A stretch of 62,999 nucleotides of DNA, filler included, from Folioceros fuciformis (GCA_049999805.1; 14 parts of 14 records of this genome joined end to end with filler, not necessarily neighbours in it), one strand, 5' to 3'. Shown: positions 19,356 through 62,999, counted from the first letter of the whole stretch. Translations and numbers: made by a program. The notes: generated by a model from the sequence alone, not told the origin.

Positions 19356-19356
19356 G

Positions 19357-25300: not shown

Positions 25301-25602
25301 TGTCCCAATCCTATGAAGTGGCACCTAGAGGTGGACCAATGTGGTTGTGTGCAGGAAGATTCAGTAAAAAAAGGTGCAATGAAAAATGCATCGATTCAGA
25401 TCGGGGCAGGAATTCCTCCTGCGCCTGGATATCTCCACTTTGGAGTAGCGGAAGGCTTCACAGGACATGGGCACTGGAATCCGATCCATCAAGCAAGCTA
25501 CTCTATTTAAGGTTCTGCAATTTGAGGTCCATGTGTTGAAGGAGATCAGTAATGTGGCTGATATCCTCTTAGAGCTCGTCTTTGCAGATTAGAGTTGCTC
25601 GC

Positions 25603-27172: not shown

Positions 27173-29556
27173 GACATGTTTCTTCCCCGCTCGAGTTTCC
27201 ACTTCGAAGTCGTATTCCTCGAGGAGTAGGACCCACTTGGCGATTCTTCTCAAAAGGTCCGGCTTGTTGACCAGGTATTTCAATGCAAAGTGATCCACAT
27301 GGAACACTACCTTGCACGCCAAGAGGTAATGTCGAAATTTCTTGCAGGCATATATGATGCCCAACGGTTCTCTTTCAGTCGTTGAATAATTCCGTTTTGC
27401 ATTAGTCAGCTGCCTGCCAGAGTAAAAGATGGGATGGTCGCGACTCTATGTGTCCCGCTGGTTGAGAATAGCTCCGATGGCGTAAGCGGACACATCCACG
27501 TCCACATGGAACGTCTTCTCCCAGTTCGGAGGTTGTAGCGTTGGTGCCCGAACCAGGCCTGCCTTCAATTGTTGGAATGCTGCCTGCCTCTCAGCGGTCC
27601 ACTCGAAAGGGACGTCTTTCTTGGTGAGCTGGGTAAGAGGAGCAGCCTTCTTGGCAAAGTTGCAGACGAAGCGGCGGTAGTACCCTACCAAACCGACAAA
27701 GGCGCGCACCTGTCTCATGTTTTGCGGGGCGTCCATCTCAGCGATTACTTTGACCTTCTCGTGGTCCACCTATAGTCCCCATGCTGACACTCGATGAGCT
27801 AGCAGGATGCCTTCCGTCATCCTGAAGTAGCACTTGCCAGGGTGGAGCTTGAGATTTGTTTCCCGGCACCTCTGCAGACACTTGCGTAGGTGATCCAGGT
27901 GCAGTTCCCGCTTCCCAAATACGCAAAAGTCATCTAAGACGACTTCCATGATCTTTCGGAGCAAGTCCTTGAAAATGGTATTCACCACTCTCTGAAAGGT
28001 CGCGGGGGCATTGGAGAGACCGAAAGGAAGCTTAGAGTACGCAAAGGTTCCCCAATCCGTCGTGAAGGTGGTCTTCTCCTGATCTTCTTTTCGCAGAGAA
28101 ATCTGATTGTAGCCAGAATACCCATCCAGGAAGCTGTACATCTCGTGGCCCGCGACGGTATCCAGCATGCTGTCCAGGAAGGGCAAAGGGTGATGATCCT
28201 TCTTGGTGGCCTCATTCAGTTTACGGAAGTCCTGGCAGACCCTGACCTTCCCGGGCTGTTTCTTGGGCACTACCACGATGGGAGCCACCCAATCACTGGT
28301 GCAGACGGGGTAAATTACTCCCGCCTCCAGATACTGGTCTAGTTGCTCTTTCACCACCATCGAATACTTGGGAGTCAACCGATATTGCTTCACCCTCACC
28401 GGAGTGCTTCCTTCCTTCAGGTCGATACAATGAATTCCCAACTCTTCTGGTATTCCAGTCATATCGATTACTTTGAACGCAAATACATCAATGTATTCCT
28501 GTAGGAGGGCCTTCAGTCCCTCTCGCTCCTCGGGCCACAAATGTTTGGACACTTTGACACTCTTACCAGGCTCAAGTTCCATTTCTTCCACCGCATCGGG
28601 GTCGACATAGACCCCTTCGGGACTGCTGCCTACACTCATCCCGGATTCCCACTCGGGAAAATCCTGATCAAAAGCTCGCCCCTTCCAAAAAGCCGAGCCT
28701 TCCCTCCGACCCTCGTCTTCCTCCCCGGGGGACTCCTTCCAGGTGATGGGTGTTTCCGCGAGCGGAGGCAGGCCCTCCTCCGGTCTGTCCTCCACGATTG
28801 CATCCACCCGATAGCCCGCGGGTCGTCAGCGTGTCTCTCCTCCCCGTAGAGCCCTTGATATGCCCCCGAGGAGCTGTCCCCCGTTCCTCCGGAAGTGTAA
28901 CCTGCTGTGGGCAGTTCAGTCTCCCCTCCGTAGGGCGCTCTGCTCCAGGAGACGAAAGCGGTCCCCTTGGCCCCTGCTTGTCGAGTTGTAAAGGTGATGC
29001 CTCACCTCCCGAAATCGAAGACACAAGCGGTGCCGTACAGCCATGGCCTTCCCAAGAGAACCTTATACCCCAAATCAGACACAGGTCGCATAACGATGTA
29101 GGTCAGATAGAAGGTGACTTCTCCAATCATTGTGGGCACATTCCAAAGTACTCCCAAGGGTTTCCTCTTGGTTTGATCAGCCATGCGTAGATAAACTCGG
29201 GCTGGTGTGAACTCCGTAAAACCCAGACGATGTGCTGTTTCTTCAATCATCAAGTTGACCCCAGACCCGGTATCTAGTGGTACCTCCAAGATTAGGCAGC
29301 CTGCCACCTCAATCTCGATTTCAGGTGCTCCGCGATCCACCAACTCCACCAGATTGACCTCCACGAACGGGTTCTTCACAGTTAAGGGTTTCGGAATTCC
29401 GCGAATTGTCTCCTTCACGATCTTGCGAGATCTTGGGCTGACTGCCAATAGTTGCCGCAGGCTAATCACGAACTCATGGTCGAGAAGGGCGTCTGCGAAG
29501 TTCGCGATTTGGTCCGAGAGGGTTGGTCGCCCTGACCTGCCGTCGTCGTTTCCTGG
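27173..29556 (-). pseudogene. Ty3/Gypsy pol fragment (protease, RT, RNase H), probably non-chromovirus
   Basis: LDTGSGVNL protease; WVAPIVVVPKK, CQDFRKLN, FLDGYSGYNQI, PFGLSNAPATFQR, VLDDF RT; DVSAYAIGA, KFRHYLL, DHFALKYL RNase H. In-frame TAG stops. Confidence 0.95.
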
Positions 29557-34551: not shown

Positions 34552-35777
34552 TCTCCTCTCCTACACTTGCACGTAGATTGGAGTCGATCCTATTGACATG
34601 GTATTAGAGCCCGGTGCAGGCGGTGCAAGATCGGCGTAGGAGGTGCTGCAAGAGTGCACACCAGAAGCTAGAGCAGCTACGAGAAGTTGGAGCAGCTTGG
34701 AGGGAGATCGGCAGCAAGCGTCCCGGCAGCTAACTCTCATATCGGTGTGTGCAGGAAGTGAGGAGAAGGGCAACAAGGCCCTGTCAGCTTACTGGACTAG
34801 CTGTTGATCCCCAGAGCTCTGTGGAAGGGCTGACAAGTGGAGGCAACAGCTGCAATAGCCTCAGCAGCTGCAAGAAAGTGTGCTAACCCTAGCTTGGCAG
34901 CAGGGAAGGAATTGACAGGAAATCTCACGGGAGCTTTGTGGGCAGACAGTCAAGAGTCTGTAAGGACACGGAGCATGAGACAATCTGGTTCACGCAAGGC
35001 AGCGTGATTCCGCACCAGATTGCTCTTAGGAAGAAGAGACTTAAGGTCTTGTGAGTAAAACTCCAGTCAGAAGCAGTTTGGTTCTTTCAGACATTTATCA
35101 AGTGTGAGTACTCAAGAAAGGATTGAGTGTCAACCTTGAGTGGTGGTAAGAATGGCCAGTGATAGTATTAACCAGATCGTACAGGAGAAGCTGGACAAAA
35201 ACAACTTCCATGCCTGGAAGTTTCGTTTTACAAACTTTCTTATGGGAAAGGGTTATTGGGACTACATTGAGGGGGAGCATGAAAAACCCCCTGTGGTACT
35301 TGAACGGAATGCAACAGCGGAGCAGATTAAGGCGCTGAAGGATTGGAGTCAAGGATCTCGGAAGGTCATGTATTGGCTGTCAATCAGCATTCATGACACC
35401 ATGATTGGGCACATACAGGATGCAGAGTCGCCCAAAGAAGCATGGGATGAGTTGGCAAAACTCTATGAGACTAACACGAAGGCGAGAAAACTGCAGTTGA
35501 AGAATGACTTCAACACAGTTATGAAGAAGAACTTATCAATCAATGAGTACGCGTTAAAGATCAAAGGGATAGTGGAATCCCTTGCGTCCATTGGTGTCAG
35601 TGTGGAAGATGATGACAAGGTCGAAGTTTGCTTGCACGGGTTAACACCTGCCTACAAGCAGTTCAAGACTTCCATACAGACTCGGGAAAACATTCCCAAT
35701 TTCTCAGACCTGATTTCTATGTTGATCATAGAGGAGAAAAACCTAGGCGAGGAATCATCCTCTAAGCCTAAGGAAAA
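34552..35777 (+). mobile_element. Copia element D 5' half (LTR end, PBS, UTR, gag)
   Basis: 34552-34598 is the reverse complement of the LTR end at 33236; PBS TGGTATTAGAGC 34599-34610; gag from ATG 35152 (EKLDKNNFHAWKFRF). Confidence 0.93.
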
Positions 35778-35877
35778 NNNNNNNNNNNNNNNNNNNNNNN
35801 NNNNNNNNNNNNNNNNNNNNNTTAATTAATTAANNNNNNNNNNNNNNNNNNNNNNNNNNNNNNNNNNNNNNNNNNNN

Positions 35878-37007: not shown

Positions 37008-40000
37008 CTCTGGTCCATCTATAGATAGTGTCGTAAGTATTCCTCTTGGATTCTGTTTACCCTTTTTGTAGATCCATCTATATCAGGGTGATATGTTGTG
37101 CTTAAACATAGTTGCACTCCTAAGCTCTTCATAAGCTGTTGCCAAAATTTTGCTGTGAATTTGGGATCTCTGTTACTCACAATTTGCATAGGCAATCCAG
37201 GTAACACATAGATATGCTTCTTAAACAATTGAGAATTTCTAAAGCCTTCACTTGCTTCTTCGTGGGGATAAAGTGTGCTTGCTTGCTGAACCTATCAACA
37301 ATTGTCATGATAGCTGTGTATCCAATATTGGGTGGCAATAACATAACAAAATCCATTGATATACTCTTCAAAGGCCCACTTGGAATAGGCAAGGGTTGCA
37401 ACAAACCTTGCGGATTTGTCTGCTCTACCTTATCCTGCTGATAGTCTACACAGGACTTCACATATTCTACAGTATGTTTGTACATTCTAGGCTAGTAAAA
37501 CAGCTTCTTCAACTTCTCATAAGTTGTGTTAATTCCCCGATGACCAACATTTGGCACATCGTGACATTCTGCAAGCAACTTCCTTCTCAACTCTTGAGAA
37601 TCAGGAATCACAATCCTGTTTTGCTTGAACATTAACAAGCCATTTCTAAGCTTAAACTTAGACCCGGGTTGCTCCACCTCATTGATCCAATCTTGCACTA
37701 ATGGATCACGCAGATAAGCCTCCTTAATTTGCGTGTGAGTGTCCTTTGGCTCAATCACCATCTGTGTTGCAGCTAGCTTAGGACCCTTTAGCTTAAAAAC
37801 AGGTATTGAACTTAACTCATGCTTGCGACTAAGAGCATCTGCCACGAGATTCTCCTTCCCTAGCTTGTACTTAATCTCCACATCATACATCGCTAAGAAA
37901 TCTTGCCATCTAGCTTGTCTTGCATTTAGTTGCAGCTGATTAGAAAAGAAGCTTGTACTTACGTTATCTGTGTATAGCACAAAAGATCTTCCAAGAAGAT
38001 AGTGTCTCCAAATCTTGAGACAATTGATGACGGCAGTCATCTCCTTCTTATATGTGGGGTATTTCCTCTCATGTTCATGCAACTTTCTTGATTCGTAAGC
38101 CACTGGCCTACCTTCTTGCATAAACACTCCTCCTACAGTTGTATTTGATGCATCAGTATACACTTCTATATCTTTCTTTGGATCATAGATTGCTAATACT
38201 GGGGTAGTGTTGAGTTTCAACTTGAGAAACTCGACTGCCCTTTAACATTCCTCATCCCACTTCCAAGCCTTCGCCTTCTTCAAGAGATCAGTTAATGGGG
38301 CAGCAATTTTGGCAAACATCGATACAAATCTTCTGTACCCGCTAGCCAATCCTAAAAACATATGCACTTTGTGCACATTGCTTGGCGGTAGCCAACTCTG
38401 TATGGCCTTTACCTTATCAGGATCCATCCTGATTCCATCAGCAGAGACAATGAATCCAAGGAAGTCTATCTCTTCCTTAACAAAGTCACACTTTGTTATA
38501 GCTAAGAACAAAGAATTTGCCCTTAACCTTTCTTTCTTTCGCGAAGAAAAGGTCTGATTATCCGTAGCTCAAGCTACATCCAGAGTACACCACTTGCACA
38601 CACAACTGCAAAGGCATTAGTCTAACCGCAAATTCCAAGACTGCAAACATAAACAAATATGATCTATCGTGCCAACGAGAGAACCCTCTTCAATGGGTGG
38701 CTCACCTCCCCCACGGGCAGGAGTGGTTCCACTGGTCATTATGCTCGAGGAATCCGGCTATCTTCCACTCACTTCGTCTGAGCTTGTTGTGGGCGGAAGT
38801 ACGAATGCTCTCCGCAGTCACCAGGACCTGTTCCCAGATACGCCAAAGTAGAGCTTTCCTTGATATCGGGTCATTACCGCCATAGACCATTGTTGTCTAA
38901 TTTTGCCACAGGGCGAAGAGAGATAGAGACCAAACCACTCCCCACCACTGCTTCTGGACAAGAGGCTCTCCTGTCCGCTCATCAAGCTCGAATAGGGCGG
39001 TTTGTTCTGTAACCAAAATGGTTCTCTCTGGGAGAAGGTTTTGAAGCCACCTGCCAACTTCAATCCAAACAGCTTGCGCATAGTCGCACTGAAAGAAGAT
39101 ATGTTGGCTTTTGTGAGAGGCTCCCACACTACAAAGCCAACACCACTCCTCCCCTGTGGCTGCCAGCAACCCGTCCTAGCCATCTGCGTTAGGCAAACAA
39201 GCTTGAAAGAAACACCAGATGGTAACCCGCACCTTGGGGGGAACCTCAATGGTTGACCACAGGAGTTTAATTGTTGCCTTCTGGCGACGTTAGGAGATCC
39301 TCAATCTAGGAGCCAGTCAACTTCGCTGAAGCGATTTCTGTGCGCGCACCAATCGAAGGTAGATGGCTGCCGAAGGAAAGTTGAAGAGTGATCTCGCGTC
39401 CGCTTGCATCCATTCGGAGCTCCCATGCCACGTATACAGGTCAGGTCTCATCACTAATTCCCAATTCTCCTTCAATCAAAACCAACATCTTACAGGACTT
39501 TGGTGCAGAGGTTGCTTCTTGCTGTCATGTTCTTCTTGGGTGAGCCAATGCCCCGCACCTTAACCTTTAACCCTTAACCTTACGCCCTTAACCTTTCCAA
39601 CACTTTCCTCAAGTGTTGGACATGCTCCTCTAAGGTCGAACTGAATATCAAAATGTCATCCAAGTAGATCACAACACACTCATCCAACAGATCTCTGAAT
39701 ATAGCATTCATGAGAGTCTGAAATGTGGTTGGTGCGTTAGTAAGTCCAAATGGCATGACTAGAAATTCAAAAGATCCATACCTTGTGCTACAAGCAGTTT
39801 TGTATTCATGTCCTTCTGCGATGTGAATTTGGTAATAACTAGCCATCAAATCTAGTCAGGTAAAATACTTAGCACCGTTCAACTTGTCAAACATATGATC
39901 CATCCTTGGCAAAGGATAGGAATTCTTGACTGTTATCTGGTTGAGTGCTCTGTAATCCAAGCATAACCTTAATCCTCCATTCTTCTTTCGCGTAAACAAT

Positions 40001-42067
40001 ATTGGCGCACCAAATGGGGATTTTGAGACTCTAACATAGCCCTTGTCTAACAAGTTAGACATTTGTCTCTTCAACTCTTGAAGCTCATCTAGCGACAATC
40101 TGTATGGCGTTCTTGAAGGAGGTACACTTCCTGCCTTTAGATCAATCTCATGATCTACAACTCTCCTCTGAGGTAAAGGAGGTAACTCATTAGGCATCAA
40201 GTCTTTAAACTCATCTAAGACAGGTTGTATCTCCTTTGGAATCTTTGGTTGCTTTTGAGACTCCATCTCAAGACCATCTTCTAGTCCTTGCAACATCAAC
40301 AAATAGAGTTCCTCTCCATTTTTAACACAACGCTTGAGCTCTTTCTTAGAGATGATTTCATCAATCTTGTATCCAAGCTGATGCTCAAGAACTGCACAAC
40401 TCACTTTGTGCTTTTCATCTCCTAAGATCTATATGGTGCGTGAGTCTACATCTACACATACCTTATTGGCCTTCATCCATTCTATGCCCAAGATTATTTC
40501 ATGATCATCCATATCTACAACTGTGAAGCTTGCTTGTCCTGTCCAATTGCCTATCTGCAAAGGGACTTTTTGCAGCTGCCCTAACAACTGCACCTTTCCT
40601 TTTGCTTGTTTCACTGTACATGGCTCTGAAGTACTAGCCCATGTCAAACTAAGCTTACTTGCTATGCCAGGAGAAATGAAATTATGTCTTGCTGCTACAT
40701 CAAGCAACATCTTCGCTTCTTCACGATTCACACATCCTTCTATATACATGAGCTCTCCACCCGCCCTATGAATAATGCTGTCCTCAGCATCTTGCGACTC
40801 ACCACATGTAGCCTGTGCAACATGTGGCCAATCCCGTCACTTGGGATTGTCAGATCCGGATACTTTTATAATCCTGAGTCTTTGGGGCAGTGGGTTGTCT
40901 TGAACAACATTCAAAGTTTGTTGAGCATTGGGGCATTCATTTGCATAATGTCCCGGCTCTCCATAAGAAAAACAAACTCCTTTCCGAGAACCCATTGTCA
41001 CTGTTCTCTTAGCTCCGCGCGCCCTGTGCACTCCTCAATTTCCCCCACGGAAGCTCCCACTAGAGTTGCCTCTTACAACTATACTTCTTTCATTATCCTT
41101 GGGAGTTCCTCTGCCAACACTGTTGGAAGAAACCCTAGTCTGCATATACCGTCCACGGGTATTACCTCGAAATCTTCGTGAGGAGTTGGATGTGCTGGAA
41201 TGAAAGGTATCTGGGATAGCATCTGCTGCTGTTATGGCCTCTGCCGAAGTCATTGGACTATACAACTCAATTCTGTTAGTAGTCCAGTCCTTCAAACCAA
41301 CCATGAGGCGATGTAGTTTGTCAACTTCACTCATTGAAGTACAATGCATAAGAACTTCACTAAAGGCACTTACATATTCCCGTACAGTACCTGTCTGCTT
41401 TATATTATCAAGCAGCTGCCGCCTCAAACGAGAAGCATTCGCAAGTTGGAACTGCTTCTTCAATGCCTCTTTAAAAGATGCCCAATTTGTGATGGTATGT
41501 GCTCGATTTCCTTGGGCTACATTAGCACAATAACTTCGCCAGCACACCAAAGCATACCCTTTTAGAAAGTTGCCCATAGTACCTAAGTAATGCTTAGGCT
41601 CTAGGCCAGATGAAGCAAGATATCTTTCAATAGAGTAAATCCAGGAATCAATAGCTTGTAGATCCCTTACTCCCTCATACTTATCTGGCACGGCCAACTT
41701 CAGATTTGCCCTCAGAACTGCTTCAAAGATATGAAAAGGATCTTGATTGTCTTCCACTTTCTCATTCTGTAGAGCTATAGGCTGTGGATTCTTCCTTGCC
41801 TTTTTCCCAGATGCTGTTAAATCTTGAAGAACTTCAGGCAATACTTTAGGAAGAATTTGTCGTAAGGCGACCATCATCTGCGACTTCCAATCTTCAAATT
41901 TTTCTCTGGATGGTCCTGCTAAGTCGGTAGGCAGCATCTCCTTGTCTTGATTCTCTTCAAGTTGTTGAGGTGGGGGATTAGGAGAAACCTCTCATATCTA
42001 CATCCTCTGGCGCTTAGCCATCTTGGAGGAATAGATTGTGCTTTGATACCAACTAAGTAACACCCCC
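37008..42067 (-). mobile_element. Chromovirus-type Ty3/Gypsy (Galadriel-like) PBS-gag-PR-RT-RH-INT, disrupted
   Basis: PBS TGGTATCAAAGC 42040-42051; gag 41035-41937; degenerate protease LLDVAARHNFIS; RT ([26 protein letters not shown]); RH (DAS, ESRKL, WRHYLLG, NLVADALSR); INT (ISMDFV, VDRFSKQAHFIP). Lineage name inferred from motifs. Confidence 0.93.
38533..39583 (-). mobile_element. 5'-truncated L1-like LINE inserted in the Gypsy RT
   Basis: 14-bp TSD GCCCTTAACCTTTC at 38519-38532 and 39584-39597; removing the insert restores LERLRANSLFLAITK. zf-RVT-like CWLC..HIFFQC..AQAVW; (GAAA)n 3' tail. Confidence 0.92.
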
Positions 42068-43577: not shown

Positions 43578-46000
43578 CTCCAGGAGCGAATCCATCTACG
43601 ACTGCATTGCCTTCTCCCTCTTGTCCTTGTTAGTCACTCACATGGCCTCTTAGTAACGAGAGGGCTCCCCACAATCCGTCAGCATGACATAATCCAGAGA
43701 TGCAACATACCTGTCAGGAGGGCGTGAGACCCTTCCTGACCTACGAAGCACTGGCGCCTAGACCGGAGCTGGTTGCACTCTCTCCTCTTCTACAAGTGGA
43801 GGAACTTGTTCCTGCACATCACGACGTTCAACCTTTCGCGGGACGGTCAAGTCCATTTTCTTGGAAGACCACCCATCGCACCTCCACAGTTGGAGTAGGC
43901 TTCTTGTGCATCTTGGTCTCATTGAAGAACACGTCATTGCTACGAACCACCCTCTTGGCCTCTGGATCCCATAGACGGTATCCCATCTCACCAGATTCAC
44001 CTTAGCTAAGAAAAATACATTTTCTTGACTTGGGAGCCAACTTGTCCCGAAACTCCTTCGGAACGTGGTAGTATGCCTTGTAGATTAACAGTCGTAGATG
44101 CTTGTATGACAGCTTCCTTCCAAACCACGTCTCCTCTGGAACCTAGTCATCCACAGCCCTATTAGGAGATCTGTTAATAAGATGCACTGCAGTAGCACTA
44201 CTTCTGCCCAAAATCCGTTATGCAATCTAGAGTTTGACAACAAACTACGCATCCTCTCCTGGATGGTCCTATTCATCCGTTCAGCCACACCATTCTGAGG
44301 AGGAGTATACGGCGCAATCAATTCTCTCTTGATTCCCTTGGAATCATAGAATGACTAGAAAGCCTTCGAAACATACTCTCCCCCATTGTCTGTCCTTAGA
44401 CACTTCAGTCGGAGGCCAGACTGATTCTCCACAAGGGTGACGAATTTCTAACAGACTGTCAAAGCATCATCCTTTTTCCTCAAACGATAAACCCACACCT
44501 TGCATGAGAAATCATCAATGAAAGTGACAAAATACAATGCACCGCCTAACGATATAGTGAGCATAGGTCCACAAACGTCACTGTGAACCAATTCAAGAGG
44601 TTTACTTTTGTGTTTACCTCTTGCTCCATGTGGTGACTTTGTGTGTTTCCCGTACCAACAATGCTCACACATGGAGAAATCGGAGAAGTCAAAAGCAGGG
44701 ATGTAACCAAAACCAGATAGTATCTTCATTCCTTTTTTAGACATATGTTCTAACCGACTATGCTACAAGGAAATACTTGGTTGTTCCGTTACACAAATCA
44801 CATGATCCTTGACAGTGGTTACCTAAATTGAGTACAAAGTGCCACACTTTGATCCACGAGCTAACACAAGAGAACCTTTGGAGATCTTCCAAGAACGATC
44901 TCCAAACCAACAATGGTAGCCAGCGTCATCCAACTGCCCTGTGCTAATCATGCTTTTTGTCAACTTCGGAACATGCCTAACATCCTTCAATGTGAATGAA
45001 GATCTGTTGTCGAACTTCAGCTGCACATCACCAACGCCTACAATCTCGCACGCATAGTTATTTCCAAGCCGAACACATCCTTTCCTAGTAGCATCATAAG
45101 TGCTAAACCACTCCCTATGCGGATTAACATGAAAAGATGCTCCAGAGTCAATTATCCAATTAGAAAATAAGTGACTCTCCACGGCTATCAGTTGTGCAGA
45201 ATCGAAGGAAGAAGAGATAAGAACATCTCCATTGTCAACAAAGTTCACCTCATCATGCTTGTTACTCGGACTTGCCTTGTTGTCGCTCTGCTTCTTCTCC
45301 TTGCCTCTATCCTTCTTGAACTTCTCGCAGTCCCTTCTGATGTGTCCCTTTTTGTGACAATGGTAACACTCAACATTGTTACGACTACAAGACTTACTCC
45401 GGGAACGACTTCGCTCCTTGTACTTCCCCTTTGAAGTGGACCTTCCTCTCATCATGAGGGTTTTGGAACCTTTCGAAGGTTCCATATTCTTCCTGTTCAC
45501 CTCCTCTATTAACAGGCTACCTTCTACATGTACAACGGTAAGACCACTGGCAGGAGCGAAATTACTTAGAGCTGTACGAAAGGTGTCCCAACTCTCTAGT
45601 AATGTGACCAATAGAAACATAGCTCTCACTGAATCTAGGAACGAGATACCTTGAGATGAGAGCTGGCTAAAAATGGTATTGAACTCGTTTAGATGATCGG
45701 ACATCCTCGTCCCTTCCTTCATCTTCAAGTCCACTAGCTGTTTCAACCAGTACACCTAAGAAGCCGCACTTTGCTTCTCATACAGGTCACACAACTTCTG
45801 CCATAGCTCGTAACTTGTGGTCTTGTCTTTCACGTTGAAGTAGACCGACTTCGACAATGTTAGCATCATGGTAGACCTAGGAAGCTCATCTACATCCTGC
45901 CACTCATCCTGAGTCATGCTAACAAGTTTCACTCCTAGCAACTTTATCGGCTTGATTTGCTTCTTCTGCACTAGAACATTGTACACTTGTTCTTTCTAGA
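43578..46000 (-). mobile_element. Tnt1/Tork-like Copia fragment (gag to start of RT)
   Basis: Collinear with about 51640-54058; LVHSDVCGP, PQNGVAERMNRT. Confidence 0.93.
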
Positions 46001-48235: not shown

Positions 48236-49865
48236 CTAGCTTTGCAACATCTCAATTTGGTCTTATAAACTAGAGCAAGGCTGCCGTCGCCCTTGGAATG
48301 GGCAGGGAAGTAACCCTTACTGATGTAACAGCAAGTTTACTTGCTGAAGAAGTGCATCGTGATGCACATAAGAAGTCTTCGGCAGGCTCTTACGCCAGCG
48401 GACCCAAAGCTCTGTTTGCCTCCAAAGGCAAGTTCAAGAAACCCAAAAGATCTGCAGGCTTTAACTACAATGGTCAGGTCTCAAACAACAATCCTCGAAA
48501 GAATCAAAAGGGACTGGTGCAGGATCCCTCGACACTGGGAAAGGGAATGTCGCAAAAAACAAGTTGGCGAGCCCCGAAAGCCCCAGCAACCAGAATCTTA
48601 TATGGCCTCAACCTTGAAACCGACGGTTCTAGTTAGCAGCCTACCAGCCTCCGCAACTCTTTGCAAAAATGGTGCCTGGTTTTTGGATAGTGGTGCAACT
48701 CACCATGTATGTAACTGTGAGCAAGCCTTTGACTCCCTTCAAAGATTCGACCAAGGACACAATTTAGTGGTTGGCAACAAGTCTTCCTACAAAATTGTAG
48801 GCGTAGGCTCTGTGACTCTCACAGATTCTTCTGGACAACTGTTTGCTTTCAAACAAGTCCTTTACGTACCCACCATGATCAAAAACCTGGTCAGTGTCTC
48901 CAAGTTGCTACATACTGGAGACTATTTGATTCATTTCACCAAAGGAGGATGCAGAGTTTTAAACAAGCCTAATCGCAAACCCCTATTATCAGGTGAACTT
49001 ATGGAGGACCTATACAAGCTCGATTTGTATTCTCACTTACCTCCACTAGCAATGCTAGTCACTTCACAAGCAAGTCAGGGTCTCGTAGACCCCTCCGTGC
49101 TCTAGCATGCCAGGCTTGGCCACGGGAGTAATAAACGACTTGCTGAACTGTCCAACAAGGACCTCTATCGGCATAAGATGCCCACCTTGACAGATATTCC
49201 GTTCTGTGATGCTTGTGCAAAAGGCAAGATTAAGCAAACACCTTATTCTAGGATGTCCTCATACAGAGCCTCAGCGCCGTTAGATCTTGTACACACAGAT
49301 CTATGCTGACCTATCTCGACACCTTCTTTCAGAGGCTCCATTTATTTTATGCCGTTTGTCGATGACTACTCGTGAATGACCTTCACTTACTTTCTACAAA
49401 AGAAAAGCCAAGCGCTTCAGACTTTTCAAGAGTATATGTCAATGGCAGAAAGACAAACAGAGCGTTCACTCAAACAGTTACGCTCACATGGCGCTAGTGA
49501 ACTAAACTCCAACGCATTCATTGCTTTCTGCTCAGAGCGTGGTATCGTCAAATAGGTTACAATTCCACACTCCTCTACCATGAACGGGGTGGCTGAAAAT
49601 AAACATCAAGTCCTATAGTATTTCGCACGCACAATGCTACTGCAGGCTGGTTTGAGCAAACACTACTAAGCAGAGGCAATTGATACAGCCAATTACATCC
49701 TCAATCGGTTACCCTCTGTGGCTATCGGCGGTCAAATTCCATTTACCTTATGGACTGGCCTTAAGCCTTCCTTAGCACACATACGTGTGTTCGGGTCACC
49801 CAGCTATGTGTATATACCATCCACTTTCCATTCAAAGTTTGACGCTAGATCTGAGCAGTATATAC
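48236..49865 (+). mobile_element. Second copy of Copia element C (gag end to integrase), interrupted by a Tork-like insertion
   Basis: Collinear with 20750-22378 and starts at the identical base. Confidence 0.95.
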
Positions 49866-52800
49866 TGAAGGATTGCTCTATGAGCTACATGAAGGAGGAA
49901 AGGAGGAGGCAAGGAGGAGAGGAGAAAGAGAGGTCACACTCTCACAATGAGTCTTTAGCAAGGGAGCTCAAAGGGGTATTTATACCCTCTAGAAGAGCTC
50001 CCTAGGAAGCTGCGCAAGAAGCTTTCTACAAATTAGCTTAAGCTAATCTAATCTAATGATACTTAACTAGACACTAATCTTAGACTAAACACATTAGTCT
50101 AAGCACATTGGGCTTTAATAACCCTACAACCTCCCCCTTAAAGGCCAATTTACCTTCATAGGAGAGCGGTCTACCTCATGCCCATGAGTGTCCGAGCTTG
50201 TGCGAATTGCTCCGAAGAGAGCCCCTTTGTAAGAATATCTGCAGGGTTCTGACTGGTGTGAACTTTGACAAGCTATACCTTCTTGTCTTCCAACACCTCT
50301 CGAATGAAGTGATACTTCACCTCCACATGTTTGGTCTTCGCATGAAACATTGGATTTTTCGCCAATTGGATAGCACTCTGTCTATCACAATGCAACATTG
50401 GCAGCTCAACCTTGATCCCAAAATCTCCCACTAAATGAGCAAGCTAAATGGCTTCCTTGCACGCCTCAGTCGCTGCAACATACTCGGCCTTCGTGGTAGA
50501 TAGCGTTATGCACAATTGCAAACGAGATCGCTATGAGACTGCCTCTCTAGTGCACATGAAAACATAACCTGATGTGGACCTCCTTTTGTCCATATCCTCT
50601 GCATAATCAGCATCCGTATATCCCACTACAGATGCATCTTCACTACCAAAACATAAACACAAAGCTTTCGTACCATTCAAATACCTCATAACTCCTTTTA
50701 CTACCTCCCAATGCTTCCTGCCATGGTTTGACATAACCTGCTAACAACTCCCACTGCAAAAGCATTGTCAGGATGTGTAGCAATTATTGCATACATCAAA
50801 CTCCCTACCGCTGATGAGTATGGAACCTTCTCCATTTCAACTTTGTCCTCCGTAGAGCTTGGGCAATCCTTGCTCGAAAGTTTCACATATGGAGGCGATG
50901 GAGTACTCAATACCTTCCCCTTCTCCATATTGAAACTTTGAAGCACCTTGTTAATGTATTCTGTCTGGGACAAGTAAAGCAAATGCTTATGCCTGACTCG
51001 ACGAATACGCATGCCAAGAATATGGCTTGCCTCTCCCAAGTCTGTCATGTCAAAGCGAGCATTCAACTTTGACTTCAACCCTGAAATCTTATCACTGCTA
51101 TTCCTAGCAATTAACATATCATCCACATAGAGGACCCGATTGAGCAAGCTTCCATCCTTAGCTTGCTTCGTATAGAGGCAATGATCCTCATCGCTACGTT
51201 TGTAGCCTTGAGAAAGCATAAATGAGTGGAATTTGAAATACCACTCCTTGAGTGCATGCTTCAAACCATAAAGACTCTTCTTTAACCTGCACACCAAACT
51301 CTCTCTACCCTCCTCAATGAAACCCTCTGGTTGCTGCATGTATACCTCTTCCTGGAGATCACCATGTAGAAATGCCGACTTCACATCTGTCTGGACAAGT
51401 TCCATGTCGTGCCTCGCAACCAGACCAAGAACACATCGCAAGGTGGTCATTTTGACAACTGGTGAGAAAATCTCATGAAAGTCAATACCTTGCTGTTGCT
51501 TAAAACCCTTAGCAACCAAACGCGCCTTGTCCTTGGGGTTGACATAATGGGGTATGTCCTTCATCTTATACACCCATTTGCATGGCAACACCTTCTTGCC
51601 CCTAGGCAATCGAACCAACTCCCAAGTTTGGTTCTTATGGAGCGATTCCATCTGCGACTGCATCACCTTCTCCCATTTGCCCTTGTCAGTCACTGACATG
51701 GTCTCTTGATAACAAGAGGGCTCCCCACAATCCATCATCATGACATAATCAAGAGATGCGACATACATGTTAGGAGGATGTGAGATCCTTCCTGACCTAC
51801 GAAGCACTGGCGCCTCGACCGGAGCTGGTTGCACTCTCTCCTCTTCTACAAGTGGAGGAACTTGTTCCTGCACATCACGACGTTCAACCTACGCGGGACG
51901 GTCAAGTCCATCTTCTTGGAAGACCACCCATCGCACCTCCACAGTTGGAGTAGGCTTCTTGTGCATCTTGGTCTCATTGAAAAACACGTCATTGCTGCGA
52001 ACCATCCTCTTGGCCTTTGGATCCCATAAACGGTATCCCATCTCACCAGATTCACCATAGCCAAGAAAAATACATTTTCTTGACTTAAGAGCCAATTTGT
52101 CTCGAAACTCCTTCGGAACATGATAGTATGCCTCGCAGCCAAACACTCGTAGATGCTTGTATGACGGCTTCTTTCTAGATCACATCTCCTCTGGAACCTG
52201 TTCATCCACAGCCCTATTAGGAGATCTGTTAATAAGATGCACCGTAGTAACCACTGCTTCTGCCCTAAATCCGTTAGGCAATCCAGAGTTTGACAACAAA
52301 CTACGCATCCACTCTTAGATGGTCCTGTTCATCTATTCAGCCACACCATTCTGGGGAGGAGTATACGGCGTAGTCAATTCTCTCTTGATTCCCTTGGAAT
52401 CACAGAATGACTGGAAAGCCTTCAAAACATACTCTCCCCCATTGTCTGTCCTTAGACACTTCAGTCGGAGGCCAGACTGATTCTCCACAAGGGTGACGAA
52501 CTTCTGAAACACTTTCAGAACATCATTCTTTTTCCTCAAAGGATAAATCCACACCTTGCGTGAGAAATCATCTATGAAAGTGACAAAAATAAGATGCATC
52601 GCCTAACGATACAGTGGGCATAGGTCCACAAACTTTACTGTGAACCAATTCAAGAGGTTTACTTTTGTGTTTACCTCTTGCTCCATGTGGTGACTTCGTC
52701 TGTTTCCCAGACAAACAATGCTCACACACGGAGAAATCGGAGAAGTCAAAAGCAGGGACGTAACCAAAATGAGATAGTATCTTCATTCCTTTTAGAGACA

Positions 52801-54580
52801 TATGTCCTAACCGACTATGCCACAAGGAAACACTTGGCTGTTGTGTTACACAAATCACATGATCCTTGACAGTGGTTACCTGACGTGAGTACAAAGTGCC
52901 ACACTTCGATCCACGAGCTAACACAAGAGAACCTTTGGAGATCTTCCAAGAACCATCTCCAAACCAACAGTGGTAGCCTGCGTCATCCAACTGCCCTGCG
53001 CTAATCATGATTTTGGTCAACTTCGGAACATGCCTAACATCCTTTAGTACGAATGAAGATCCATTGTCGAACTTCAGCTGCACATCACCAACGCCTGCAA
53101 TCTCGTATGCGTAGTTATTTCCAAGCCGAACACATCCTTTCCTAGTAACATCATAGGTGTTAAACCACTCCCTATGCGGAGGAACATGGAAAGATGCTCC
53201 AGAGTCAATTATCCAATTAGAGAATAAGTGACTCTCCACGGCTGTCAGTTGTGCATAATCGAAGTAAGAAGAGGTAAGAACATCTCCATCATCAACAGAG
53301 TTCACCTCGTCACGCTTGACACTCGGACTTGTCTTGTTGTCGCTCTGCTTCTTCTCCTTTTCTTTGTCCTTCTTGAACTTATCACGGTCCCTTCTAATGT
53401 GACCCTTCTTGTGACAATGGTAACACTCAACATTATTACGACCACGAGACTTACTGTGGGAACGACTTCGTTCCTTGTACTTTCCCTTTGAAGTGGACCT
53501 TCCTCTCACCATGAGGGCGTTGGAACCTTTTGAGGGTTCCATATTCTTGATGTTCACCTCCTCTGTTAATAGGCTACCTTCTACATTTACAACGGTAAGA
53601 CCATTAGCAGAAGCGGAATTACTCAGAGCTGTACGAAAGGTGTCCCAGCTCTCTAGTAATGTGACCAACAGAAACATAGCTCTCACGGAATCTAGGAACG
53701 AGATACCTTGAGATGAGAGCTGGCTGAAAATGGTATTGAACTTGTTCAGATGATCGGACATCCTCGTCCCTTCCTTCATCTTCAAGTCCACCAGCTGTTT
53801 CAACCAATACACCTGAGAAGCCGCACTTTGCTTCTCGTACAGGTCACACAACTTCTGCCATAGCTCGTAACTTGTGGTCTTGTCTTTCACGTTGAAGTAG
53901 ACCGACTTCGACAATGTTAGCATGATGGTAGACCTAGCAAGCTCATCTAGATCCTGCCACTCATCCTAAGTCATGCTAACGGGTTTCACTCCTAGCAACT
54001 TGATGGGCTTGATCTGCTTCTTCTGTACTAGAATATTATACACTTGTTCTTTCCAGAACGGGAAGTTAGTACCATCTAACTTGTCGATATTGAACATGAC
54101 GTTTTCTGAGGACGTCATGATTCAAAATCGATGCAAATCAAGCAAAAGGCTAGTTAGAAAATGTCGGAATGTAATGTAGCTTGTAAAAGTTACCCTCACA
54201 ACTTGTTCCGAATCGGCTATCCACAATTCAGGCCTCTGTTGCTCACGGCTGCAGTCTTTTCGTCTGATTCAAGGTCCCCTGCCTCTCGGCGTCAGCGTTC
54301 CAGCGCCCGCAATCCCGCGTATGCTTACGATACCCGTGCCGCGACTGGCCCGACTGGCCTCGTTCATGTCGTCCACTGGCCCGACGGCCGTGCCCTCTGT
54401 GGCGATTGTGGTGCCTGGCACGACCTGGTGTCCTACGCCCGTGTGCCCGCCGGTGCCTGGCGCCCGGGCTTCTGCGCCTGGCGTTGCTGGGTTGGCGCCC
54501 GCATCAGGCGGGCGGTCGTGGCCGGGCCATCGCCCCTGGCCAGCGGGGCTGGCGGCCCGGCTGGGGGCCTGGCACCGCCC
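49866..54580 (-). mobile_element. Near full-length Tnt1/Tork-like Copia element (5' LTR lost in gap)
   Basis: 3' LTR 49866-50128; PPT at about 50130-50139; RNase H, RT (RLVAKGF, LYVDD), integrase and protease; gag from ATG 54118; GC-rich UTR to 54580. Many stops and frameshifts. Confidence 0.96.
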
Positions 54581-54680: not shown

Positions 54681-54936
54681 CCCCCGGTTTTCTGAACGGT
54701 CTGCATTGAGGGGTCTGACTGTACTGGAATATTGACGTTGTGTGGTACTCGTCCGCCCCCCGGTTTTCTGAACGGTCTGCATTGAGGGGTCTGACTGTAC
54801 TGGAATATTGACGTTGTGTGGTACTCGTCCGCCCCCCGGTTTTCTGAACGGTCTGCATTGAGGGGTCTGACTGTACTGGAATATTGACGTTGTGTGGTAC
54901 TCGTCCGCCCCCCGGTTTTCTGAACGGTCTGCATTG
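54681..54936. repeat. 76-bp tandem repeat, about 3.4 identical copies, truncated by gap
   Basis: Unit CCCCCGGTTTTCTGAACGGTCTGCATTGAGGGG...GTACTCGTCCGC at 54681, 54757, 54833 and 54909. Confidence 0.95.
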
Positions 54937-57613: not shown

Positions 57614-59629
57614 TCAGGCTTCTCGGGCATCTGCCAAGCTGTCGATGGATCTGAAGAAGCTGACCATAGGGTCATACAAATCCGCCTTGGCACGGGTGCT
57701 GAGAATGAAGTCGATGTGACCATAGTCTTCCACGTAAACCAGCCTTGGTTTGGACTGCAACTCATTGATGGTGCGGAGGAGGTCAACGGGGTCAGCCAGA
57801 GCATCGTTCCCGCCATAAGCCATCCACATCGGGAAGAACTTCGGGATGAGGGACAAGTCATATTCAGGAGGAGTCAGTCTGTAGTAGTGCTTCAGGTTGC
57901 CAACCCAACCGTAGTCGTATTTGGCGAATGTGCCCTTTCGGATCACTGGCAACGAGAGTTTGGAAGCGCGTTACAGCAGAAGGATAAGACCCAACAGAAT
58001 TGCATGATACCAGGAAGCTAGTGGGATGCAAAGCTAGTTCAATCTTGTAAAAGGCAGCCCGAAACAGAAGAAACGTACTCTGAGCTAAGTGTTGCATGTT
58101 TTTCAAGGACGTAGCGTGTGGCTCGTACTGCAGATAATACGGCACCCTACTGCTATTGAAGCAGCAATTTGGCCCTACAACGTTGAAGCACTTAAACTAG
58201 GTTAGAGAGTGCCGGTTTCTACAGAACCTCAGATTGGTTGCACCACGCAGACTCGTACCAGTTATTGCTGTCAGGTAGTCCCCACACTCCCCTTCCATGC
58301 TCATGCACACCATATTTACAAACTGGACACCAAGATCGCTGCCAAAGGAGCCAGGGTCGGAGAGAAAGAGAGAGAGGGTAAGAGCCTTGTAAGAAACACC
58401 ACGAATTAGACTAGACAAAGGCCTTAACGACTGTTAGAACTTACCTGCGAAGGTTGAATTCAGCGAACCCCATGGCCTTCACTAGCTGCAGGCAGATATG
58501 GGATCAGCCGCCAGGCCTCGCTTCACGAAGGTGCATGAACAGCGAACACGCAAATCAGCAACTTAGCTAGCAAAAGAATTCAACCCCACCTTATCAATGT
58601 ACAGGTGAGCAGCGTTGCTGCAGAACTTGGAAGTTATGTGGTCCAAGTAAGAGATGGGACTTAGTAAAGCTGCCGCTGCCACAAACTCTGCGATCTTGGT
58701 CTGTGACAGAGCAGCTAGCGCCATAATTGTACCCTAGTGGATCCACACACAAGGTTTTCAGCAAACAAATGACATGAAAAAAACGAGTGACAAAGAGCAG
58801 CACCCCTTACCTGAGAGTGCCCAACATAGTAAACAGGAAAACCTGTGGTCTTGTACACAAAACCCAGCATTGTAGCGAGATCGAACTCAGCCAGCTCATC
58901 CCACGTCCAGTCCCAAAACTCCTGAAGCCCAATGGGTTGACGAGCTGATCAATGTCAGACTCAGAGAAACGAGGAGTTACAAACAGAAGACAAAATTTGT
59001 AAGCTGGTAGACATGCCTGCTCGCCTGAGGACAAGGAGATGTGACCATGGCTCCACCGAGTACCCCGAACACTGCCGATCCAGACATCAAATCCCTCGTC
59101 GGCCAGGATAAAACCTAAAGATTGATCCGGTTCATTGAGAAGCCATGTATCACCAGCCTGTCATTCCAGTATCCCAAGGAATTCAGTGATTTGCAGGAAA
59201 CAAGCGGGAGGATACATACTGAAGATGAAAAAAATTGGCCAACCTGAAGCAAGCCGTGTTGCAAAAACACAGGTTTCCTGACCTCGCCTTTGAGGCCGAA
59301 CCCAGCACGACCGTAGGGTATGCGTTGGACACCAAGCAGGAACCCATCCTCCGTGAGAACCTGGGAAAAATCTTCCACCAGAATCAGGACACCATGATCT
59401 GTCTCCCATCGGCAGGCAGAGAAAGAAATGAGGAGCTACCCTCGCCCTTGCCCAAAAACGAACTGCGTACCGTATACTCCTGGCAAGGGTAGCCATAGCC
59501 AAGCACTATAGCCGAACACAAATCCACCGGCTCATCACCATAGACCAGTGCCAACTGTTCTCCAGCCACGACACAGGCACAAAACACGACCAGGAGAGCG
59601 CGAACCCCGTGCCAGTATCCAGCAGCCAT
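57614..59629 (-). CDS. LIP1: Acid triacylglycerol lipase (alpha/beta hydrolase, LIP1-like), 9 exons, 406 aa, signal peptide
   Basis: Exons 59629-59471, 59360-59244, 59157-59017, 58921-58811, 58733-58590, 58485-58445, 58338-58259, 58174-58079, 57945-57614 splice in frame (1221 nt). Motifs TEDGFLLGVQRI, PVFLQHGLL, GFDVW, FWDWTWDELA, GHSQG (Ser), GGNDALAD (Asp), YGHIDF (His). Confidence 0.93.
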
Positions 59630-60720
59630 GTCTCGAACCTCGGTGGCCGCGTTACCCGAGACGTGAGCTTTGCACCAGATGTTCCGTGACCCCACTCCAG
59701 TCACATGCAACCAACATCAACTACCAATTCGACCACGCAGACTCAGCATCCCCGACGTCAAGCAGTCCGACCACCTCCTTCGGCACTTGGCCTTCATCCC
59801 GCCGGGTCAGGGGCTCACATATATACAGTCTTTTGCCCATCCCCAACAACAATCGAGCCCATCTCTATCCCAAACCGGCCACCGAGCCGTCTCACGGCCG
59901 TTCCATTCCTAGGCTGGGAGAGCAATCTCGGTCCAGGCCATCAAAGCCACCACCCCGTGCGGACGCCTGCTGAAGGCAAAAGCAACATGGCTGCAGCCCA
60001 GGTGCCCAGACGTGGCTGTGTTTGCGCTATAAAGAAGGAAAAAGAGCCTGAGGGAGCAGGATCGAGCCCAGGCTCGACCATGAGGTCGGGACGCAGGCCG
60101 TTTGTGGGAAATCTGCTGAGCTGGGCGGCGCTGATTTGCTCCAGAAACCCGGACAAAAGAAGTTGGCAAGCGGCATCACCTGGGGAGGCTGAGCTTCCTT
60201 CTCCCGGCACGCAATCTATGTGTCCACAGCCCATTACAAGACTGCATCTATGAAACTGCGGTTGCATGAAAAGACTGGCAACCTCCTCATTGTGTATCGG
60301 AATCCACTCTCTTCCAGGATCCAAGTACAGTAACGGCTCCGCATTCCAGGCGCTGATTCCTGTACTTTCTCCGAGCCCAAGTAAATTACACCTTTTTCAA
60401 CCCAGACGGTAAAAAAACAATTTTGCATTCAAAGGTGAATGTGTAGCACAATGAAAGAAACGGAAGATTGATGGAAAGCTTTTGAATTTGTATTGTTTAG
60501 ATGAAAGTGAAAAATTGTAGACAAGACAACCTATTGCGCGGGGTAGAGATAACACTTGGACTTTGCCTACCACCATTTCAAAATTATAAACTTAAGCATT
60601 AAGTGAAGGTCAATTAAATAATAAAAAAAATTTACATCTTGTTAAAAAAGCTACTTGTATACACATTTTATATATGTTCTTGTAAGTCCAACTTAAATTA
60701 TTATGAAAAGGTATGTCTAT

Positions 60721-60854
60721 TGATAAAACCACGTAACCCTAATGAAAGGGTAACCTGCTGACTTTAAACATTAATTGCTGACTTTAAACATTAATTAAAC
60801 TATTTCTTAATATGCTGATAACACACCTAACCTAACCACACTTAGGTTTTATCA
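60721..60854 (-). repeat. 134-bp 3' LTR of Copia element E
   Basis: Perfect 10-bp terminal inverted repeat TGATAAAACC/GGTTTTATCA; adjacent minus-strand PPT AGTGGGAG (60855-60862); internal tandem duplication TGCTGACTTTAAACATTAAT. Confidence 0.82.
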
Positions 60855-61005
60855 CTCCCACTTGTTGAAGCATGTTAAGAACAGGACAAGTCTCATGAAG
60901 GTCTTCTCGTGACAATCTCTTCAACTCCTGTCTTGAAGGCGGCGCACATGTAACACTCAACTACGCCTCACGTCCATTACGCTCCATTCCAATCCTTGAT
61001 AAGCA

Positions 61006-62037
61006 ATGGACTTTGCCGGCATGGAGCCGTATCCTGTGAGGTGCACCCCGTTTGTAAGTATCTTATATGCCTTCATTCTTGTGATAAGGCTCAAGATTAA
61101 ACGCCGCTTGCTGGAGCTCACCATGTCGCCCTCTACATACGAAAATTCTCCCAGGCGGCGGCTTAGAGCCTATGTGCGGGATAGCTAAGGCCGATTCACC
61201 AGAAGAGCTCGGACACCTGTCAGCGATGCTAACAATGAGATTGTGCAGGCTGCTATAGCGCGCGGTGCTGGATTGGTGAGGCACCCAAGAGGAAGGCCGC
61301 GAGGCAGAGGGAGAAGGAGAAGAGCAGTTGCGCTGTCTGCTCCAGTCATGCCCAGCCCTTCTCGCCCGGCTGCACCAACTCTAAAAACCACCAGCATCCA
61401 TCACAGTCGCGAGCCTGAGTATGAATACCAGGATCATGAGGCTCTACTAAGTAAACCCTCGATGTTTCCAGACACTGAAGACTATCTGGAGGAGACTAGA
61501 ATTGTCACCCTTGGCAGCATCACTAATCTTGGATCACCTGTTTGGTACATATGCACAAACAGCCGCCTTTTGATGAAGAGGTTTTGTGTCTAGGCTTGCC
61601 AAGAATATCCAAATCATGTTGTCAGCCACTATCGTAAGTTGATCACACCCTTTGATTTATGCTGCCACCATTTGTAGCAGATTGCTGCCCTAACTCCCAC
61701 TTACTACTGAAACTGTGAATGTTGTGTTGACATAGGTTCTAAAATAAGGCTGCGTGAGGAAGAGAGGTTGAGAACTGAGGCACGCATCAGAGAGGAAGAG
61801 CAACTGTCCTATGAGGACAGGAAGAAACGAAACAGTTCAGGTTCCTTTGAAGATGCCTCCAACTCACAGTCCTTTGAATCTAGGTTGCTTGGTTCTGACA
61901 ACGAAGAAGTGTCCTCCCATGAGTTAGAATCACAGCACTCTGATTCTGAAAGTGAAGAAATGAATTCCCCAAGGACTCCAGATTCCATCAACTATCCAAC
62001 AAGCAACCATTCAAACTCCAACTGTAGCTGGGATTAG
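61006..62037 (+). pseudogene. Antisense extra ORF in the 3' spacer of Copia-E (343 codons, four internal stops)
   Basis: ORFs 61006..61188, 61243..61593 and 61768..62037 share one frame with no frameshift. Internal stops TAA, TAG, TAG, TGA. Contains PRGRPR, a Cys/His cluster and an acidic Ser-rich tail. Confidence 0.7.
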
Positions 62038-62060
62038 GCATAGCTTGTTGTTTCCTTTTG

Positions 62061-62999
62061 TTACTGTGACTGTAGAAAGTCTTCAGACTTCCCCATACCA
62101 AGACTTTTAACATGCCTCGCATGCAGATCCCTTCCAAGGGATTTAGTAAGTATGTTAGCTGGATTATCAGCTGTTGGGATATATTGTAGTGTGATTTTTC
62201 CAGCTTGCACTAGCTCTCTGATAAAGTGGTATTTCACTTCAACATGCTTGGTTCTTGAGTGAAACACTAGATTTTTGGCTAATGCAATTGAGCCTTGGTT
62301 GTCTGTGTTTATACCTGTACAAGTTGGTAAGCTTATGCCCTTTTCTTTAAACAATATCTTGAGCCATACAACTTCTTTAGCAGCAACAGTTAGGACTCTA
62401 TATTCAGCCTCTGTACTGGACAGGGCTACTGTTGGCTGCTTTTTGCTGCTCCAACAGATAGGGCCTCCATCAAAACAAATAACATACCCTGATACTGACT
62501 TCCTTGTGTGTATGTCCCCTGCATAGTCAGAGTCAGTATATACCTCTAGGTCTAGGGCATCCTTTTGATGATGATACTTCAGCCCTAAGTCTGTTGTACC
62601 CTTTAGGTATCTAAACACTCGTTTAAGACTTTGCCAGTGTTCTTGACCAGGGTTTTCTAAGTACTGGGATAGCACACTTGTAGAATATGCTATCTCTAGT
62701 CTAGTTGTATTGGAGGCATAGATTAATTTCCCTACACCCTTCCCGTAAGGTATGTTAGCCATAGCATCCTTCTCATTTTGTGTTTCAGGACTCATGTCTG
62801 TGCTGAGTTTAAGTCCATTAGGAAGTGGGGTTGCTGCAGGTTTAGCATCCTTAAGCCCCATTTGTTCAGCACTATCTAGGATGTACCTAGGCTGAGTTAG
62901 AGTGATAAGTCTTCTACTCCTATCTTGCTGAACATGTATTCCTAGATAGCCGTGAAGTGGTCCTAGGTTTGTCATCTCAAATTTAACTGCTAACAGTCC
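62061..62999 (-). CDS. Copia element E pol C-terminus (RT end + RNase H), runs off the window
   Basis: MTNLGPLHGYLGI, YTDSDYAGD, ALSSTEAEY, DNQG, RTKHVEVKYHFIRE; open throughout. Confidence 0.96.
   Translation of the reverse strand, partial: GLLAVKFEMTNLGPLHGYLGIHVQQDRSRRLITLTQPRYILDSAEQMGLKDAKPAATPLPNGLKLSTDMSPETQNEKDAMANIPYGKGVGKLIYASNTTRLEIAYSTSVLSQYLENPGQEHWQSLKRVFRYLKGTTDLGLKYHHQKDALDLEVYTDSDYAGDIHTRKSVSGYVICFDGGPICWSSKKQPTVALSSTEAEYRVLTVAAKEVVWLKILFKEKGISLPTCTGINTDNQGSIALAKNLVFHSRTKHVEVKYHFIRELVQAGKITLQYIPTADNPANILTKSLGRDLHARHVKSLGMGKSEDFLQSQ

Follow-up and report, generated by a model that had tools for sequence, protein, structure and literature searches.

The Copia element at the end of the window

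The locus lies at the end of a 62,999-nt stretch of DNA from Folioceros fuciformis (GCA_049999805.1), the whole of which was analyzed and is referred to here as the window. It comprises the 3′ part of a minus-strand Copia retrotransposon and, between the end of pol and the putative polypurine tract (PPT) of that element, a long stop-poor reading frame on the opposite strand. The features are as follows:

60721..60854, minus strand: putative 3′ LTR, 134 bp, with TG..CA ends and perfect 10-nt terminal inverted repeats
60855..60863, minus strand: putative polypurine tract, AAGTGGGAG on the element strand, adjoining the LTR
61006..62037, plus strand: stop-poor frame antisense to the element, 343 codons interrupted by four internal stops and followed by a terminal TAG
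61186..61188, plus strand: stop 1, in-frame TAA
61591..61593, plus strand: stop 2, in-frame TAG, kept by both GTAAGT intron candidates
61675..61710, plus strand: stops 3 and 4, in-frame TAG at 61675 and TGA at 61708
62038..62060, no strand: converging-stop gap of 23 nt between the frame stop and the pol stop
62061..62063, minus strand: pol stop codon
62061..62999, minus strand: C-terminus of Copia pol, 312 codons (end of RT plus the RNase H region), from the RVT_2 tail and protein matches

The pol ORF leaves the window at its end, and its 312 visible codons hold no internal stop. In Pfam its RVT_2 tail was matched at E 3.9e-5, under the gathering score, and a protein search with pol retrieved 2464 proteins at E<=1e-20, the best 120 of which are 33-48% identical to it and mostly carry rve, RVT_2 or Copia gag domains. 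Among those best 120 of the 2464 matches, no close relative of the focal Copia family was found in the public protein sets. Judged by the sequence of its RVT_2-type pol C-terminus and RNase H, the host element is a Ty1/copia-type LTR retrotransposon. The window stops inside its RT, and the 5′ LTR, PBS and second TSD lie beyond.

The segment at 60721-60854 is read as a putative 3′ LTR, the second LTR being beyond the window. Its inverted repeat (TGATAAAACC/GGTTTTATCA, at 60721-60730 and 60845-60854) is perfect over 10 nt. Supporting this reading were the depth of aligned contigs, which has a local maximum in the bin 60742-60875, the X1 contig of a related copy, which leaves the window at 60851 as at a structural boundary, and another Copia element in the window, which also has short LTRs. 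The LTRs of that other element, at 6356 and 11105, are at least ~90 nt long and its pol-to-LTR spacer is <=150 bp, so that the extra kilobase in the focal element, whose pol-to-PPT spacer takes up ~1.2 kb 3′ of pol on the element strand, calls for explanation. The putative LTR also contains a perfect 20-nt tandem duplication (TGCTGACTTTAAACATTAAT x2, 60756-60795). Its edge at 60721 is ~420 bp past the end, at 60300, of a spliced X5 contig that marks a minus-strand host gene at 59016-60300 (GT-AG introns 59158-59243 and 59361-59470), and lies upstream of that gene if this contig end is the 5′ end.

The remainder of the window is dense in retroelements between 445 and 53923. ORFs with Copia gag, Pol_BBD, rve or RVT_2 domains are located at 445-3360(+), 7366-10515(+), 20812-23019(+), 35140-35829(+), 44823-45755(-), 48341-49105(+) and 50701-53923(-), and Gypsy-type ORFs (RVT_1, RT_RNaseH, Ty3-capsid) at 27770-28807(-), 37492-38220(-) and 41035-41937(-). 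The pol C-termini of the other elements are only 40-47% identical to that of the focal element. Neither a second copy of 60200-62999 (blastn) nor a further copy of the frame (tblastn) was found elsewhere in the window.

Stops, codon usage and composition of the antisense frame

A sequence-only reading of this DNA had proposed a hidden antisense gene in the spacer, and its description of the anatomy stood up well. Translation gave the 343-codon frame with the four stops at the positions listed above, three separately called ORFs (61006-61188, 61243-61593 and 61768-62037) fall into that one frame, and all of the peptide strings quoted earlier were found in the translation. The frame indeed runs antisense to a Ty1/copia-type element, in the interval from pol to the PPT/3′ LTR; it starts near the PPT, which lies ~143-151 nt before the ATG, and it runs tail to tail with pol, its end at 62037 being separated by the 23 nt from the pol stop. 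It is closed directly upstream of the ATG by in-frame stops at 60997 and 61000 and occupies ~86% of the ~1.2-kb spacer. The remark that each internal stop is one C>T step from a Gln or Arg codon proved uninformative, as by the genetic code this is true of every TAA, TAG and TGA.

The distribution of stops was found to be coding-like in comparisons with Markov nulls, with pol and with five control regions in the window. Over the frame region the plus-strand frames hold 5, 17 and 29 stops and the minus-strand frames 12, 13 and 21, relative to a random expectation of 17.7 +/- 4.0, and the plus-strand counts have the same ordering as the 1/25/31 of pol. The probability of five or fewer stops in any of six frames was 0.008-0.011 under first-order, second-order and block-wise Markov nulls, and that of a three-frame asymmetry at least as great as the one observed was 0.0005 or less, also when composition was kept block by block. 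All five of the other 1030-nt regions downstream of a Copia pol in the window had a six-frame minimum of 10-13 stops, the corresponding figure for the focal region being 6. The signal is strongest in the last third of the frame (61678-62037, 2/6/15) and points in the same direction, more weakly, in the first two thirds (3/11/14). The window as a whole holds too much genuine TE coding sequence for sliding-window empirical nulls drawn from it to be informative. Even allowing for the screening of 63 kb, chance seems to us the less likely explanation of the signal.

The four stops nevertheless set the frame against the visible pol, which is intact. If equal decay is assumed, the probability that all four would fall in the frame and none in pol is ~0.075. 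Unless some of the stops are intronic, the contrast suggests that constraint on the frame in the recent lineage was weaker than that on pol.

Codon usage gave a weaker picture. With a model trained on 17 TE ORFs of the window, the log-likelihood of the frame was the best of the six, at 0.06 bits per codon, real TE ORFs scoring mostly 0.08-0.27. This value fell short of significance (P = 0.06 when the frame is taken alone, 0.18 when taken as the best of six), and among 47 stop-rich control windows 64% matched or exceeded it. The heterogeneity of nucleotides by codon position reached p = 0.035 for the frame versus 3e-6 for pol.

The base composition of the frame is not uniform, as is apparent from the following segments:

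59600-60300, host-gene 5′ region: GC 0.58, CpG o/e 0.73
60900..61450, no strand: GC- and CpG-rich block of host-gene-like composition
61100-61420, GC/CpG-rich core: GC 0.58, CpG o/e 0.73
61680-62060, CpG-poor element-like part: GC 0.44, CpG o/e 0.21
62061-62999, pol: GC 0.42, CpG o/e 0.10

GC declines 5′ to 3′ along the frame, and likewise in the adjacent host gene, and the GC-rich center of the frame also has ORFs of 70 and 73 codons on the opposite strand. Given a CpG o/e of 0.73 versus 0.21 within one frame, a single old gene is not the simplest reading. Two readings fit the 5′ half, namely a more recent, host-derived acquisition or the unmethylated 5′ end of a plus-strand gene.

Predicted product, candidate introns and related copies

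Protein searches with the frame, in which stops were read as X, covered about 5.8 billion protein clusters and 1.84 billion representatives. No homologue of near length was identified at E<=0.01 among 8000 scored candidates, and no shorter homologue among 667. The sole match among the 1.84 billion representatives was a 1661-aa bacterial repeat protein (P0001), matched through 8 weak repeats, which was rejected as a summed-repeat artefact; its best single BLASTP match had 33% identity over 48 residues and spanned a stop. The ESM Atlas yielded no usable match for two segments of the frame, the best E in a PDB search was 0.57, and scans of viral and prokaryote-genome contigs with the frame found none. 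In Pfam, no family was matched by the frame at E<=1, including the AT-hook, zinc-finger, TRP28 (PF04195) and SMC-type families, and Rfam returned no family for the spacer. Over all six frames of the spacer the only Pfam match was DUF7392 in a minus frame, which was discarded with 18.2 bits against a 27-bit cut-off. A metagenome scan with pol located 14 loci, the two longest matches being 44% and 41% identical and the other long ones 31-33%, together with five short fragments of 30-42 residues at 48-50% identity; these loci are too distant from the focal pol to hold the same spacer.

Single-sequence AlphaFold2 modeling, with no alignment, yielded no confident fold for the frame product: mean pLDDT was 48.6, and 248 of the 343 residues were below 50. 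Only two confident helices were present, a hydrophobic one at residues 15-40 and a charged one at residues 238-277, and both the Arg-rich segment and the Cys/His cluster lay wholly at pLDDT < 50. The predicted product is mostly disordered, with an Arg-rich basic region, a single long helix of charged residues and an acidic tail rich in Ser. The functional claims of the sequence-only reading were not supported by these results. The RGRP core of the AT-hook motif is literally present in RHPRGRPRGR, but the proposed AT-hook had no Pfam match at E<=1 and fell below a pLDDT of 50. Similarly, the supposed zinc-binding Cys/His domain had no Pfam or PDB match, a pLDDT of 32-40 and three stops inside the cluster; the cluster sits at the site of three of the four stops and may be intronic. 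A nuclear location is poorly matched by the TM-like N-terminal helix, and for the proposed DNA- or Zn-binding regulator or anti-silencing factor, which would be transcribed from the 3′ LTR, no homologue, domain or confident fold was found.

The plus strand of the frame contains two GTAAGT hexamers, where about 0.28 were expected, and each begins a candidate intron:

61054..61248, plus strand: hypothetical in-frame GT-AG intron, 195 nt, GTAAGT...TGCAG
61634..61735, plus strand: hypothetical in-frame GT-AG intron, 102 nt, GTAAGT...CATAG

Removal of the first candidate would take out stop 1 together with the hydrophobic stretch, and removal of the second would take out stops 3 and 4 along with some of the Cys/His cluster. 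The TAG at 61591 would stay unless a weaker donor were used (61586-61735). In size the candidates are similar to the host introns of the spliced contig, which measure 86 and 110 nt. Since 68, 74 and 127 in-frame GT-AG pairs were enumerated for the three cases, we regard the two antisense introns as hypothetical candidates and not as a finding. In the RNA-like run X5, contigs left 60340-62215 without cover.

To compare copies of the element, contigs of four coded runs were aligned to the window at 80% identity or more. The unique flanks had a depth of about 7-10, and depth over the element was distributed as follows:

60742-60875: 44-47, the highest local depth
60876-61009: 24-33
61010-61679: 12-16 (X1) and 18-30 (X2)
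61680-62215: 38-70
pol: 60-164

The middle of the frame (61010-61679) is thus near single-copy, and in diverged copies it is mostly unaligned at >=80% while both flanks align, a pattern contrary to that expected of a conserved gene. In the other-letter table, the best-supported 40 of the 286 rows were all in pol. A 222-nt contig from another sample (X3) matched 61322-61456 exactly (135 bases) and continued leftwards into 87 unlike letters; its junction is not GT-AG, and its loose end, as well as that of the X1 contig, was not found elsewhere in the window. The X3 contig may represent a second genomic context or a donor locus.

The 3′ part of the frame behaves differently from this middle. At 61680-62060, where depth is about 40, several diverged copies share ~83% identity with the window and show no net length change within the frame. 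In records 6 and 11, 61738-61869 aligned with 23 differences and no gaps and was followed by 132 diverged letters, equal in length to those of the window, before the alignment resumed at 62002; the gaps listed for these records were confined to the 23-nt interval between the stop codons, in which the diverged copies have three letters deleted (at 62048, 62054 and 62060). Record 10 aligned at 61453-61555 (12 differences) and at 62014-62282, and between these, over 61556-62013, it had 459 letters to the 458 of the window at < 80% identity. Equal or near-equal lengths at a divergence of ~17-20% or more hint at a length constraint inside the frame, although, given the net +1 in record 10, the frame must be shifted in one of the two copies at least.

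Origin of the frame, related antisense ORFs and other features of the window

We tentatively favor the reading of the frame as an antisense extra ORF, specific to this family and possibly chimeric, which in the present copy is interrupted or possibly spliced. This reading builds on the demonstrated anatomy, the coding-like periodicity of the stops and the hints of length conservation between copies. According to this reading, the frame would be, or would recently have been, a protein-coding antisense extra ORF in the long spacer of a low-copy, short-LTR Ty1/copia family. Up to three of its four stops could lie within two antisense GT-AG introns, and the TAG at 61591 would be a real break unless the weaker donor served. 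The frame would be a composite, with a 5′ half of host-like GC and CpG content that was perhaps captured and a 3′ third that is element-like and common to more copies. We speculate that transcription would start from an internal or LTR-proximal antisense promoter, that any introns would persist through retrotransposition, the sense RNA being unspliced over this region, and that either a small charged accessory protein would be made or the antisense RNA would itself modulate the element.

Somewhat unlikely, in our judgment, is the alternative that the spacer is non-coding, i.e., 3′ untranslated element DNA, and the stop-poor frame fortuitous, helped by the GC-rich center, with its two ORFs on the other strand as well, and by a purine-rich, Glu/Ser-like low-complexity 3′ part. 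The lack of any homologue, domain or fold, the non-significant codon usage, the four stops beside an intact pol and the poor conservation of the central part among copies would all be accounted for, and with perhaps 30-60 one-kilobase opportunities in the window an event of P ~0.01 would not be rare. Less easily accommodated are the 5/17/29 asymmetry, which remains at P 0.0005 or less with block-wise composition kept, and the in-window control spacers, five of five of which have at least 10 stops in every frame. Fortuity would also have to explain why copies diverged by ~17-20% have no net indel within the frame and indels just outside it, and why the spacer is spanned almost end to end.

It is more doubtful that the spacer is a piece of a host gene, captured in antisense by transduction or template switching, which would have inherited its coding signal, would have no role in the element and would be present in few copies. 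The host-like composition of the block at ~60900-61450 (GC 0.58 and CpG o/e 0.73, versus a CpG o/e of 0.10 in pol) is consistent with such an origin, as are the near single-copy depth of 61010-61679 and the X3 contig, which by leaving 61322-61456 for unlike sequence at a non-GT-AG junction suggests a second genomic context; transduced additional ORFs are found in one or a few copies of an element according to the part of PMC7264820 available. However, no host or other protein resembles the translation in any frame, and the frame runs on across the composition boundary. In addition, its strongest signal (2/6/15 at 61678-62037) is in the CpG-poor, element-like third that several copies have in common, and a homologue of 61453-61555 is already linked to pol in record 10, so at least that part must be old.

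Very improbable is a still-functional, intron-containing antisense gene in this Ty1/copia element, with introns at ~61054-61248 and at 61634-61735 or 61586-61735, the CpG-rich 5′ end as an unmethylated antisense promoter, and a small, charged, largely disordered product; it would be the first accessory gene of the aORF-3R type outside Ty3/gypsy. The explanation of the spacer by an unrelated nested insertion was rejected, as no terminal repeats bound the central block and the sole 10-nt direct repeat (60854/61693) is at the level of chance.

Antisense ORFs in a comparable position (aORF-3R) belong to Ty3/gypsy elements of the Tat/Retand type, and the maize Grande gene23, rice RIRE2, Silene Retand TRP28 and common-bean ORF2 were used for comparison. 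The available text of PMC7264820 lists antisense ORFs at this location, from pol to the 3′ LTR, for Grande, RIRE2, Retand, bean PvRetro13 and the fungal Boty, and states that clear database similarity has never been described for their products. From the portions at hand of PMC11963269, TRP28-domain antisense ORFs are present in 97% of Retand clusters, in spacers of 2.9-6.6 kb, and from those of PMC4093653 an antisense ORF2 occurs in 15 Gypsy families of the common bean. The focal frame resembles these, as they appear in the sections seen of the three papers, in its location between pol and the 3′ LTR, its antisense orientation and its tail-to-tail arrangement with pol, and also in that the known products have no clear database similarity and a function that is unknown. 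It differs from them in that its host element is Ty1/copia and not Ty3/gypsy, its family is low-copy and the frame is interrupted by four stops; its spacer is 1.2 kb and not the 2.9-6.6 kb given for Retand in the text seen, and it carries neither the TRP28 nor the SMC domain of the Retand and bean ORFs. The Copia antisense frame fits the aORF-3R class by position and orientation and fails on an uninterrupted ORF and on known domains.

Among Copia elements, the extra ORF known between pol and the 3′ LTR is the env-like ORF of Sireviruses (SIRE1-type). It is in sense orientation in the excerpts of PMC4093653 and PMC7264820, whereas the sense frames of the focal spacer hold 12, 13 and 21 stops, and the bean env-like families have 1.7-kb LTRs there, unlike the 134 bp of the focal one. 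In the same part of PMC4093653, 63 of the 65 Copia families of the common bean have only retrotransposase ORFs and the other two have a sense env-like ORF, which gives an antisense ORF in a Copia element a low prior. Transduction of host genes by LTR retrotransposons (e.g., maize Bs1) is a third point of comparison, sharing with the focal 5′ half a host-like GC and CpG content, as foreign DNA present in one or few copies; unlike in such cases, the searches found neither a donor gene nor a homologous host protein for the frame, and its 3′ third is element-like and in more copies. Antisense genes of the HTLV-1 HBZ type are driven from the 3′ LTR and spliced. These retroviral genes, which are mentioned in the accessible part of PMC7264820, resemble the frame by analogy only, in being antisense near the 3′ LTR and possibly spliced, and the frame has no sequence or domain similarity to them.

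In the literature consulted, as far as the texts available extend, ORFs lying antisense in the interval from pol to the 3′ LTR are described for Ty3/gypsy only, and the extra ORFs of Copia elements are sense and env-like. Literature searches retrieved no report of a Copia element with an antisense ORF, a result that does not prove its absence from print. A confirmed example in Copia would imply that this gene arrangement arose independently in both superfamilies and would provide a compact (~1 kb) system for the role of such genes or antisense RNAs. If instead the frame is a captured fragment or the result of chance, it would be an ordinary feature of a decaying element and a useful warning against taking stop-poor frames in GC-rich or low-complexity spacers for genes.

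Several repeats were observed elsewhere in the window. Direct repeats at 16207-20318 and 17349-27072 (86-96% identity, spacings of ~3.2 kb and ~8.3-8.8 kb) flank the Copia ORFs at 20812-24643, which suggests long-LTR or nested elements; in that Copia, roughly 950 bp separate the pol end from the next repeat, without a stop-poor frame. A repeat of ~1.25 kb with 91% identity (43583-44828 and 51639-52885, 8.06 kb apart) overlaps Copia gag/Pol_BBD ORFs and looks like a single Copia family present twice in the same orientation. Thirteen pairs of 44-N runs, with 12 bases between the members of each pair, are spread across 6230-54680 and may be gaps or stretches that were masked or withheld. Tandem arrays are present at 1-265, with a 52-nt unit (four overlapping copies in a 109-nt register, 95-97% identical), and at 54681-54936, where a 76-nt unit is repeated three times at 100% identity beside an N-run.
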